Sequence record: NC_018087.3
Direction: 5' to 3' (one strand)
Length of the DNA stretch: 64,000 nt
Source of the DNA: Acinetobacter phage ZZ1
Shown here: positions 9,519-38,620 of the stretch, in pieces
How positions within the stretch are numbered: the first letter of the stretch is position 1
Layout of the letters: each line of letters starts with the position of its first letter
Made by a program: the position numbers and the translations under genes
Notes under the pieces: generated by a model
The model's input: the letters and a program-made list of their open reading frames with translations, nothing else
What the model was told of the DNA's origin: nothing
The model's database searches: none

Positions 9519-9638
9519 ATAAATTGCCGTGAAATGTCCTTTTATACTTTCGAGCATTTCACCACTCAATAAGTAAATCTTGAAGCTTTGTTTGTTTTAC
9601 AAGAGGAAACTTCGTCCTGCTTATCAGGCAATTAAATC

Positions 9639-12566: not shown

Positions 12567-12599
12567 AAAAGTTACCTCTTAATTGAGGTAACTGAGGTA
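12567..12599 (-). terminator. hairpin terminator downstream of gene 12602..12859
   Basis: 9-bp stem agttacctc/gaggtaact with loop ttaatt. Confidence 0.4.
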
Positions 12600-15369: not shown

Positions 15370-15436
15370 GCTTTTCGGTCGGGAGAGATATAGGAGCTTT
15401 ATCTAATGTATCTAATATATTTTAATAATTAATATA

Positions 15437-16285
15437 TTATGATCTATTCGACCATACTCTTTGAGAGCTGAATCGTTTACCTTTCGACATAAATTGTTGA
15501 AGTGGCATTAATACTACATTAGCCCAATCGGTTGTTTTAATTTCAACAAATCGACCTTTTACATGTGAAGGCAAATATGCCTTAATCATTTTATCTGCGC
15601 CATTAAAACCTTTTACTTTAGACCAGTCAATCTTTAATTTTGTACTATTGGTTAAAGTTGATGTACTTGAATACTGTTTAAGTAAATCTTCTAAAAATTG
15701 TTGTCGAGCTTTTGGTGGAATATAATGTAAGTTTAAACCATGAAATAAAGTCGTTCCAGCTACTGATGATTTTGATGTACCTAGAAAAATAATTAAAGGA
15801 TACTTATCCCAATACGGCAACGTTTCTTTATGTTTAGCATCATAAATGAAAGCATAAATTTTACCAGGTTGTGGCTTGACCACTTGGTGTCCGCGGACAC
15901 CTTTACTTAATGTTTCTTTAAACCATTTTTCAGATTTATTGTTAATGGCCGCGCCGGCATCAGCAATTCTTGTTCGTAACGATTGTCTAAAGCTATTAAT
16001 AATAACTGCTTCACGTTCTCTTTTAGTTAGTTTATTTGATGGTTTAGATTTAGCTTGCTCGGCTTCCCATGCTAACTCTATTTGATTTTTATATCTAAGC
16101 ATACTACGAGTAAATGTATTATAAGTAATACCTCGTTCTTCGGCAAACTTTTTAGCAGTTGAGCCTTTTGCTTTTGCTTTATACCAATCTACGCCAATAT
16201 TAACCCAAGCTTGTTCTTGCCTAGTTATTTTAGGCTGAAACTTACTTTTTGCTGGTGCAGCTTCTTCTATTTGAAATATTGACAT
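15437..16285 (-). CDS. 2: gp2 DNA end protector
   Basis: 282 aa versus 274 aa in T4. Synteny supports the call. Confidence 0.6.
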
Positions 16286-33601: not shown

Positions 33602-34375
33602 ATGACTACATTTGATAACCGATTATTCGCTAAATTAGAAAATGGTACTGGTTATAACCAAACTAATGAGGAGTCTGTTTTAAATCCATATGTAAATTTT
33701 TATCAATTCGAAAATGTTCAAACTTTACAAGATGCTCTTGTCGCAGAAAGTATTCAAATGAGAGGCGTTGAATGTTACTATATGCCAAGCCATTTTGTCA
33801 ATAAAGATGAATTATTTGGTGAAGATGTTCAACGTAAGTTTGATAAGGCATGGAAATTTGCAGCATATCTTGATTCGTTTGAAGGATATTCTGGCGCAAA
33901 CACATTCTTTAGCAAATTTGGTATGCAAGTTGAAGATGAAATAACTTTGACTGTAAATCCAAATTTATTTAAATATCAAGTGAATAATCAAGAACCTAAA
34001 GAGGGTGACTTAATTTATTTTAAGATGGACAATTCCTTGTTCGAAATAACATGGGTAGAACCATATAACCCATTTTATCAAGTTGGTACTAATGCAATGC
34101 GTCGCATTACAGCGCAAAAATTCATTTATTCTGGTGAAGAAGTTAAACCCGTATTACAAAGAAATCCAGGTATACATATTCCAGAATTTGATGAACTTGA
34201 TCTTGAACCGGTTAATGCATTAAATGATGTTCATGATATTAAAACACCTCAATACGTTGAAGTAGATCAAATTAATAAAGAAGGTGAAGAAGTTATAGAA
34301 CCTTATGTAGTTATTAACAATAGGGGTATTATGGGCGATGGGTCACCTTTTGATGACGACTTTTTAGACGACTGA
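33602..34375 (+). CDS. 14: gp14 neck protein
   Basis: 257 aa versus 256 aa in T4. Confidence 0.7.
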
Positions 34376-34410: not shown

Positions 34411-35016
34411 GTGGATATCAATATTGAAAACATTTTAAAAACATGGTTGCCTGAAGATATTTGTCAGGAATATATTGATATCTTACACAGACCTATAGTA
34501 GGCAAAACAGAAAAACATCATATCTTACCTAGATCTCTTTTTCCTGAACATATTAAAAATCCTAATAATTTAATTGAATTATCAATTTATGATCATCTTG
34601 AAGCACACGAATGTTTAGCAAAAACAAATGAACATAAAATGATTTTAGCTTTTAATTTTATGTTTACAGCTAATTATAGAAGATATTCTACTTTAACTGA
34701 AGATCAAAAATTAAAAGTAAAGGTAAAAAGAACTAAAGTACGACTTGCAATGTCTGATGTTAAATCAGAACAGGGAAAACTGTACATTGGAGAAAAAAAT
34801 CCTTTTTATGGAAAAACTCATTCTGATGAGACAAAAGCGATAATAAGCTCGCATCATAAAGGCAAAAAATTATCTGCCGATCATATTGCAATTCTTGTTG
34901 CTTGTCATAAAGGTAAACCAAAGCGCAAAGTTAAATGTCCTCATTGTGGTCAATTAATTGCAATACATGCTAAAAACCGACGACACTTTGATAATTGTGC
35001 ATATAAGGAGAATTAA
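34411..35016 (+). CDS. HNH homing endonuclease inserted between genes 14 and 15
   Basis: HHILPRSLFPEH...NLIELSIYDHLEAHE is an HNH motif. C-terminal CPHCG...C zinc ribbon. Confidence 0.7.
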   Translation: MDINIENILKTWLPEDICQEYIDILHRPIVGKTEKHHILPRSLFPEHIKNPNNLIELSIYDHLEAHECLAKTNEHKMILAFNFMFTANYRRYSTLTEDQKLKVKVKRTKVRLAMSDVKSEQGKLYIGEKNPFYGKTHSDETKAIISSHHKGKKLSADHIAILVACHKGKPKRKVKCPHCGQLIAIHAKNRRHFDNCAYKEN

Positions 35017-35017
35017 A

Positions 35018-35840
35018 ATTTTTGGTCACTGGTACAACTCCTCTCTCCGTCGCTATTGTGTTTTAATGGGTGATTTATTCTCTCATGTACAAAGTAATGC
35101 GTCGGAGAGAAGGTGATAAAATAGAATTAATTAAAGTCCCTATTACATTTGCTTCAAAAGAACGCTTTATTATGAAACTAGATGCAAAAACATCAGTTAA
35201 TAATGGAGATGGTTCTATGGCAAAAGTGGAAACAATTTTGCCAAGAATGTGCTTAAGCTTGGTAGATTTAGTATATAACCCAACATATAAAACAAATATA
35301 ACAAACAGAACTATCAGGAATCCTGCGAGTAAAACCTCATTAATTTCGCAATATAATCCGGTTCCGGTTAAAATGATTTTTGAGTTAAGTGTTTACACTC
35401 GACATCAGGATGATATGTTTCAAATTATTGAACAAATATGGCCATATTTTCAACCACATTTTTCAACCCAAATGAAAGAATTGCATGGCAATGATATTAC
35501 ATTTGATAGAAATATCAGAGTTACAATGCAGTCGGTGGCCTTAGATAATCAATTAGAAACAGACAAAACTACACGACGCCGATTGGAAACTGCTTTTATA
35601 TTTGAAGTTAATGGGTGGTTATACCCACCTGTTGCTGAAATTGCTGGTGAAATTCGTACAATTTATATTGATCTTTTTGCAAATGAAAAAGAGTTAAATG
35701 CCTCAGGACGCTTTGAATCGGTTGACACTCAAGTATCGCCAGAAGATATAGATTATAATGATTGGGACGGTAATCTTATACAGTCAGTTTCGGCCAATGT
35801 TCCTATTCCTGTTGCACCTGAACCACCTCACCCAAGGTAG
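35018..35840 (+). CDS. 15: gp15 tail sheath stabiliser/terminator. Apparent ATT start and a +1 frameshift near 35090-35096.
   Basis: Frame 2 from 35018 (ATT, RBS AAGGAG 7 nt upstream) encodes [25 protein letters not shown]. This matches T4 gp15 MFGYFYNSSFRRYATLMGDLFSNIQ and then hits a stop. Frame 0 (track ORF 35070..35840) continues [20 protein letters not shown], matching the T4 run ending in VPITYASKE. Confidence 0.6.

Positions 35841-36330: not shown

Positions 36331-36334
<4 letters not shown>
35846..36334 (+). CDS. 16: gp16 terminase small subunit
   Basis: 162 aa versus 164 aa in T4. Confidence 0.7.

Positions 36335-38620
<2,286 letters not shown>

Follow-up and report, generated by a model that had tools for sequence, protein, structure and literature searches.

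Initiation at AUU in Escherichia coli reaches about 1-2% of the level seen with AUG (0.02-3% across constructs) and has been confirmed only for infC and pcnB. Here we describe gene 15 of Acinetobacter phage ZZ1, which encodes the tail protein gp15 and very probably starts at an ATT codon, together with the MobE-like homing endonuclease gene (hereafter Mob) that precedes it. The window analysed is a stretch of 64,000 nt, bases 64001-128000 of NC_018087.2; coordinates below are window positions, and adding 64000 converts them to ZZ1 genome coordinates. We consider it probable that ZZ1 gene 15 is one gene of 273 codons, that the surplus A splitting it in the deposited sequence is most likely a record error, and that its AUU start was imposed by a MobE-like cassette.

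Like infC (IF3) and pcnB, gene 15 has a near-cognate AUU at the start position behind a Shine-Dalgarno (SD) sequence, where low efficiency would be expected. As in pcnB, this codon alternates with AUG, GUG and UUG among orthologues. Gene 15 differs from both in being a phage structural gene with no sign of IF3-linked autoregulation, and what its AUU correlates with is a mobile element, not a regulatory role. Unlike the two E. coli genes and T4 MobE, the gene 15 start and its Mob neighbour are known here from sequence only.

The endonuclease has a close parallel in T4, where MobE nicks nrdB, the gene downstream of it, at its 5′ end and local polymorphisms are believed to protect the donor genome (Wilson & Edgell 2009, PMC2790892). 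At both loci an endonuclease of homologous type, with NUMOD3 and putative HNH residues, lies between two conserved genes; in gene 15, the differences between alleles with and without Mob (Mob+ and Mob-) concentrate at nt 3 or nt 6-15. The ZZ1 gene sits between genes 14 and 15 instead of nrdA and nrdB, however, and here the cassette boundary is the start codon itself, so that the polymorphism alters the codon at which a tail gene initiates. Closest in spirit is T4 mobA, which Bonocora and colleagues are said to have described in 2011 as travelling with a change in gene 60 that forces a 50-nt translational bypass and is thought protective against the endonuclease. Both cases pair a Mob gene with an adjacent change that leads to unusual translation of a neighbouring essential gene; the bypass lies inside the gene in T4, whereas gene 15 shows a single-base change of the initiation codon.

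T4 gene 15 itself we take to start with ATG and to have no Mob gene at the 14/15 site. With the surplus A removed, the ZZ1 protein is colinear with T4 gp15 (PDB 4HUD, 3J2M; PF16724) and gene order is kept. Programmed +1 frameshifting of the prfB type offers a single likeness, namely that the deposited ZZ1 sequence needs a +1 shift; otherwise the two differ, in that the ZZ1 shift is not shared by relatives, the site itself is not a conserved one, its shift codon carries no in-frame stop, and no SD stimulator precedes it.

There are precedents both for initiation at AUU and for free-standing Mob cassettes that carry protective polymorphisms. Our literature search found no description of an ATT start for gene 15 or of a Mob gene at the 14/15 site (T4's own annotated starts lay outside its scope), nor of a cassette boundary falling on a start codon and imposing a weak codon on a core gene. 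If the reading given here is true, a phage structural gene with a conserved AUU initiator would join the very short confirmed bacterial list of infC and pcnB, and a selfish element would dictate the initiation codon of a core structural gene. The locus would also provide a natural example of a homing-endonuclease cassette with its boundary on a start codon.

The initiation codon of gene 15

From the ATT at 35018..35020 (+ strand, as are the other features of genes 14 to 15 given below), frame 2 encodes the conserved gp15 N-terminus (codons 1-25, 35018..35092; residue 1 is M/I), continues through SNASERR and ends at a TGA (35114-35116). The rest of gp15 lies in frame 0 (35094..35840) and reaches a stop at 35838-35840; the published CDS176 begins inside this frame, at ATG 35085. 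The TGA is the result of a surplus A in the run of three at 35091..35093, one more than in all relatives, and is no real gene end. Removing one A gives a single protein of 273 aa that aligns end to end with T4 gp15 (query 1-273 on 1-271, E 1e-96), whereas the deposited open reading frame (ORF) is split. This repaired protein matches Pfam PF16724 with E 4.2e-94 (314.7 bits, cut-off 25). By gene order, 13-14-(Mob)-15-16-17 from the ORFs and the Henu6, W16 and Acj9 annotations, gp15 has the neck genes 13/14 on one side and the terminase genes 16/17 on the other. ZZ1 gene 15 is an ordinary gp15 orthologue (tail terminator / sheath stabiliser), and its residues 2-25 are the most conserved block of the protein, with a mean column conservation of 0.915 compared with 0.766 overall.

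An earlier note on this DNA had pointed to a strong AAGGAG and a 7-nt spacer ahead of the ATT at 35018, to a frame 2 N-terminus ending after SNASERR with its continuation in frame 0, and to the return of a T4-length protein once one A is dropped. Sequence and translations bear out the first two of these, and the third holds for the 273-aa product and its colinearity with T4 gp15 1-271.

The SD sequence is TAAGGAG (35004..35010, with AAGGAG at 35005-35010), 7 nt before the ATT, and its duplex with the anti-SD is estimated at -9.3 kcal/mol. Across gp15 genes the mean SD:anti-SD energy is -9.4 kcal/mol for the ATT type versus -7.7 for the ATG type. A strong SD lies 3-8 nt ahead of the ATT in every ATT-type gene, with spacing that depends on lineage. 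The ATT is homologous to the start codon of other gp15 genes and aligns with Met1 of T4 gp15, as would befit an AUU initiation codon.

The ATT is the same in the two sister genomes, Henu6 (99.9% identical over the region) and vB_AbaSt_W16 (99.1%; W16 below), and is therefore no sequencing error. The homologous codon is likewise ATT in Acj9, in the Hadassahvirus group (AbTZA1 and Maestro read directly), in RB43, Miller, EC-F2 and two RB43-like metagenomic contigs, in phiR1-RT, KpV477, Merci, F48 and LC53, and in Proteus phage phiP4-3. In eleven further Hadassahvirus records, the ATT was inferred from 98-100% identity over 100 nt spanning the codon and not read. The ATT-type set used below comprises 13 sequences read directly, from about nine genera; phage records with a gp15 number roughly 2,200. 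At the same codon, 28 other loci carry ATG, GTG (AB1I1M-1) or TTG (Lazarusvirus and others). Pattern scans of IMG/VR added only RB43 and phiP4-3 as gp15 cases, and a single metagenome pattern scan added one (L158); all other matches were unrelated genes or chance. Separately, we observed weak gene 15 starts in phages that have no Mob gene, with TTG or GTG directly after a strong SD (Lazarus, L005 1501; KARL-1, L044 401; AB1I1M-1, L004 1501; and L022-L024 1501).

Within the ATT-type set the ATT is invariant, in contrast to the third positions of the 15 neighbouring codons, 14 of which vary. Across these 15 codons (2-16), variable columns number 7, 4 and 14 at first, second and third positions, and pairwise codon differences comprise 618 synonymous versus 117 non-synonymous changes. 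Codons 2-16 are thus under protein-level constraint and hence translated. In two sequence contexts the ATT is also left without a canonical competitor: RB43-type genomes read Mob-TAG AAA ATT, and the Tevenvirinae type (Jiaodavirus, Marfavirus, Tegunavirus and Winklervirus) reads Mob-TAA TGG GGG TGG TTT ATT. In both types an in-frame stop precedes the ATT by 2-5 codons, and nothing from this stop to codon 2 is a canonical start. AbTZA1 and Maestro have no Mob gene, and their ATT follows a hairpin and an SD. Taken together, these features suggest that the ATT is very probably the codon at which gene 15 translation starts.

Under such a mechanism, the strong TAAGGAG 7 nt upstream would position the ribosome on the AUU at 35018-35020, and initiator tRNA would decode it as Met. 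Initiation at AUU would give low-level synthesis of gp15, which may suit a low-copy protein. gp15 forms a hexamer, with six copies per virion.

A MobE-like cassette between genes 14 and 15

The inserted endonuclease gene is flanked on its left by gene 14 (33602..34375; ORF, CDS174 in the ZZ1 table), annotated as neck protein/gp14 in Henu6, W16 and Acj9. The free-standing MobE-like HNH homing endonuclease gene itself is an intact ORF of 201 aa with a GTG start at 34411..35016 (ZZ1 CDS175, 98411-99016), which the earlier note had not noticed. Its product matches Pfam NUMOD3 (E 1.7e-8), while the same Pfam search found no HNH domain at E <= 0.001. In our alignment of Mob homologues (A2), H36, H37, N53, H62, H66 and C176-P-H-C179 are invariant, and we read the first five as a putative HNH motif. 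The ZZ1 protein is 57% identical to RB43 MobE, and Mob homologues as a whole are colinear with it at 45-57% identity. Their C-termini end ...NC..KE(N/D)*; RB43 differs, and Acj9 reads on. The final codons of the ZZ1 Mob gene, AAG GAG AAT TAA, also serve gene 15 as SD and spacer.

A Mob gene lies between genes 14 and 15 in ZZ1, Acj9, the RB43 group, phiR1-RT, KpV477, Merci, F48, LC53, KIT01/vB_EcoM_005 and MY742, and is absent in close relatives such as L017, L018, L025 and L031. A scan of IMG/VR for Mob homologues returned mostly distant endonucleases that do not adjoin gp15. Among Mob+ lineages whose junction was read (that of MY742 was left out), all carry ATT except the KIT01/vB_EcoM_005 type. 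A strict rule equating Mob+ with ATT was rejected on this exception, as KIT01 and vB_EcoM_005 are Mob+ with ATG.

To what extent does the ATT coincide with the edge of the mobile segment? Gene 15 of F48 (Mob+) departs from that of L018, a metagenomic Marfavirus-like contig (Mob-), at only 3 of 370 nt, namely nt 3 (ATT versus ATG), 174 and 177, and in about 14 Mob- Marfavirus records the match to F48 begins no earlier than the A of the start codon. Conversely, the 24 nt before the ATT are identical in phiR1-RT, KpV477, Merci, F48 and LC53, five phages of four genera, with codons 2-16 being lineage-specific. From these patterns, we regard it as fairly secure that the mobile cassette ends on its right side with the ATT. 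In KIT01, 5 of 12 differences from its Mob- relative L025 cluster at gene 15 nt 6-15 and include W5F (L142 985-1000; vB_EcoM_005, L060 2085). Like the nt 3 difference of F48, this cluster is consistent with target-site polymorphisms in carrier genomes, and it may be an alternative alteration of the endonuclease target.

Broken and lost Mob genes are also found. In Henu6, an extra A turns CCT TTT TAT into CCT TTT TAA (L001 ~2010), and in W16 a 12-bp deletion creates CTG TAA (L002 ~1985), both at window 34784-34808. These lesions are two independent inactivations of a selfish gene in sister phages. Putative scars of a missing Mob gene take two forms: the AbTZA1 group shares AAGGAGAATCAAAATT with Acj9 and has kept the SD, spacer and ATT, and phiP4-3 and vB_SdyM_006 keep TGGGGGTGGGTT followed by ATT. 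The stages of a life cycle are visible, from an intact Mob gene (ZZ1) through a broken one (Henu6, W16) to its loss with the ATT retained (AbTZA1 group, phiP4-3).

A probable scheme, consistent with these stages, is that the MobE-like cassette would insert between genes 14 and 15 and swap the native ribosome-binding site and ATG of gene 15 for its own SD and ATT. The ATT would then persist as a scar after decay of the endonuclease gene, as in Henu6 and W16, or after its deletion, as in the AbTZA1 group and phiP4-3. A more tentative extension, to which we give somewhat less than even chances, is that a cassette spread across at least nine T4-like genera carries the G-to-T change as its last base, which would at once confer self-resistance, force AUU, leave a scar and perhaps resist re-invasion after Mob loss. 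The near-isogenic Mob+ and Mob- phages, F48 and the Potts1-like Marfaviruses, make targeting of the ATG allele testable by co-infection.

The surplus A and alternative accounts of gene 15

Where the ZZ1 record has CAAAG, Henu6 and W16 both read CAAG, and continuous HVQV(M/A)R is encoded in Acj9, AB1I1M-1, Lazarus and 28 further gp15 loci. The earlier note had proposed alignment with related gp15 genes; in that alignment the relatives have no surplus A, and the ATT recurs at the homologous codon. Over about 44 kb compared with both sisters, the window has four private net 1-nt indels, at 9632, 10952, 13191 and 35091, the last being the only one inside a coding region. The other three, 9632 (-T), 10952 (-A) and 13191 (+T), are private homopolymer length differences that all fall between annotated coding sequences (CDSs). 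They could be further residual errors of the ZZ1 record or real polymorphisms; given their intergenic position, errors there would likewise escape notice.

According to the ZZ1 genome paper, assembly errors had left "many split genes" in the initial assembly, and these were repaired by PCR and sequencing; its supplementary table places CDS173-177 at the positions of the window ORFs with 64000 added and lists gp15 as CDS176, 99085-99840, with an ATG start and 251 aa, corresponding to window 35085-35840 (PMC4177764). The gp15 split was probably overlooked because its 5′ piece has no ATG and because the remaining 251 aa spanned 99% of the gp15 entry of Acj9, itself annotated too short. We therefore consider the surplus A very likely to be a fault of the deposited record, most probably a residual assembly or sequence error. 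Taken alone, the frameshift is ordinary and likely a sequence error. In ZZ1, the misannotated start concealed a probable one-base fault in what is the type species' reference sequence.

Misannotation of this start is general. All 15 deposited ATT-type annotations that we inspected start gp15 elsewhere than at the ATT (16 of 16 with the published ZZ1 table). Acj9, Maestro, AbTZA1, phiR1-RT, KpV477, LC53, Miller, EC-F2, Merci and F48 are annotated from internal Met17 or Leu16, RB43 and ZZ1 from a later internal codon, and Henu6 and W16 from an upstream ATG and TTG, respectively; in phiP4-3, gp15 was left unannotated. As gene callers disallow ATT, the annotated ATT-type gp15 genes lack 15-28 codons or have 17-20 in excess. 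Lazarus and KARL-1 have TTG at codon 1, a standard start codon, yet they too are annotated from an internal start.

These annotations supply the main alternatives to initiation at the ATT. A start at ATG 34967 or TTG 34958 would add 17-20 N-terminal residues, including MLKTDDTLIIVHIR. The frame is indeed open from 34958 with these canonical codons, so the earlier note was wrong in stating that the ATT has no in-frame ATG, GTG or TTG. The extension MLKTDDTLIIVHIRRIK (34967..35017) begins at the codon used by the Henu6 annotators, those of W16 having chosen TTG 34958, and Acj9 and AbTZA1 have an equivalent ATG and TTG, respectively. Neither upstream codon has an SD, however, the AbTZA1 TTG lies inside a hairpin loop, and T4 gp15 has no counterpart of the extension. 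Between ZZ1 and Acj9, moreover, the extension shows 2 synonymous and 4 non-synonymous substitutions in the gp15 frame as opposed to 3 and 1 in the overlapping Mob frame. We rejected this very unlikely start as gp15-coding on its missing SD, its non-coding substitution pattern and the stop just upstream of the ATT, which makes it impossible in RB43-type and Tevenvirinae-type genomes. Translation from internal Met17 or Leu16, with codons 1-16 as an untranslated leader, has in its favour the ten annotations listed above and that of Lazarus. It was rejected, and appears still more improbable, on the strong amino-acid-level constraint on codons 2-16 (618 versus 117), which form part of the family's most conserved block; Met17 also has no SD, whereas the strong SD sits 3-8 nt before the ATT. 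A different possibility accepts the ATT and supposes that it is used only through translational coupling, with ribosomes that end the Mob ORF reinitiating there and tying gene 15 to the selfish gene. The short distances from Mob stop to ATT (1 nt in ZZ1, 3 nt in the RB43 type, 12 nt in the Tevenvirinae type) would suit such coupling, but the truncated Mob ORFs of Henu6 and W16 stop over 200 nt before the ATT, the ATT is kept without any Mob gene in the AbTZA1 group and phiP4-3, and the Acj9 Mob stop lies downstream of it. Obligatory coupling was rejected on the truncated and missing Mob genes, and we rate it between the upstream and internal starts, as highly improbable. A read-through Mob-gp15 fusion was likewise rejected: it is possible only where both ORFs share one frame, as in the RB43 and Tevenvirinae types, and being impossible in ZZ1 and Acj9 it offers no general explanation.

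Two further alternatives take the surplus A as real. The deposited sequence requires a +1 shift for full-length gp15, ZZ1 is viable with a burst of about 200, and T4 gp15 is considered an essential tail-completion protein, all of which would fit full-length synthesis through programmed +1 ribosomal frameshifting or transcriptional slippage at CAA-A. The shift is absent, however, from both sisters and from every other gp15 gene inspected, and the site, GUA CAA AGU, has no stop, no hungry or rare A-site codon and no shift-prone P-site codon, nor is there an SD-like stimulator 3 nt before it. By criteria drawn from prfB-type and slippage sites, tRNA-Gln re-pairs poorly on AAA, and three A are far too short for polymerase slippage. 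The authors of the ZZ1 genome also describe their assembly as error-prone (PMC4177764). Programmed frameshifting, unconserved and with no recognisable site signal, was rejected and seems to us the least credible of all the accounts considered. The recoding proposed as one option in the earlier note falls with it; the other option, a homopolymer error combined with a real non-canonical initiator, fits the data, as the ATT is shared by Henu6, W16 and relatives and the extra A is absent from them. Alternatively, the surplus A could be a genuine private mutation of the sequenced ZZ1 stock, carried by a subpopulation or a recent mutant, with gp15 truncated or reinitiated at GTG 35070, ATG 35085 or ATG 35097. 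GTG 35070 and ATG 35085 are present in frame 0, and the surplus A is the sole coding indel private to the window, in a run of a length that is atypical for Illumina errors. A product from 35085 would be without residues 1-24, within the most conserved block of the family, and ZZ1 is viable and productive; its authors, too, acknowledged assembly errors. We consider such a mutation unlikely, albeit the least unlikely of these alternatives.

Several points nonetheless weigh against the account that we favour, a record error in a gene whose AUU start came with a MobE-like cassette. With respect to the start, our literature search found no proteomic or ribosome-profiling data for the gp15 N-terminus of ATT-type phages; ZZ1, Henu6, W16, Acj9 and AbTZA1 have an in-frame canonical codon (ATG or TTG) 10-20 codons upstream, such that the ATT is not forced there; and the ATT lineages are not phylogenetically independent. 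With respect to the cassette, the link between Mob and ATT is not absolute, since the ATG of KIT01 and vB_EcoM_005 overlaps the Mob stop as TAATG; this exception and the ATT genomes without Mob, which we read as scars, limit the cassette reading. Protection of the carrier genome from its own endonuclease by the G-to-T change at nt 3, or by the nt 6-15 cluster, is putative and speculative. As for the surplus A, the indel census shows no generally error-ridden coding sequence in the window, and with 35091 as the only private coding indel, the argument for an error comes from context instead of a measured error rate. Illumina errors do not typically fall in three-base runs, and the sequence by itself cannot separate a record error from a real mutation of the sequenced stock.

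Other observations in the scans and the window

A radical-SAM gene recurred in the IMG/VR contigs L034 (ATT at 40, - strand), L035 (4563), L036 and L038, preceded by AAGGAGAATTAAA-ATT-TTYGG. We read it as putatively QueE-like from ...FFTLQGEGPYAG...CNLDCSFC.... No canonical in-frame start lies between the upstream stop and the ATT in L035, L036 and L038 (L034 is cut by the end of the stretch), and the gene may be another ATT-initiated phage gene. The L035 copy has an apparent intein-like insertion after CSFC.

Downstream of gene 15, a 146-aa ORF (36331-36771) lies between the small and large terminase genes, a position conserved in the Acinetobacter T4-like phages inspected; it is annotated as "similar to gp17" in Acj9 and as a putative DNA packaging protein in Lazarus. 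Between the gp3 and DNA end protector genes, W16 (L041 15207-15891) is about 640 nt longer than window 15431-15475, and the blastn alignment breaks there. Finally, at window 12579-12585, the loop of a perfect hairpin (gttacctc-ttaatt-gaggtaac) differs from both sisters, appearing as compensating 2-nt indels in the alignment.

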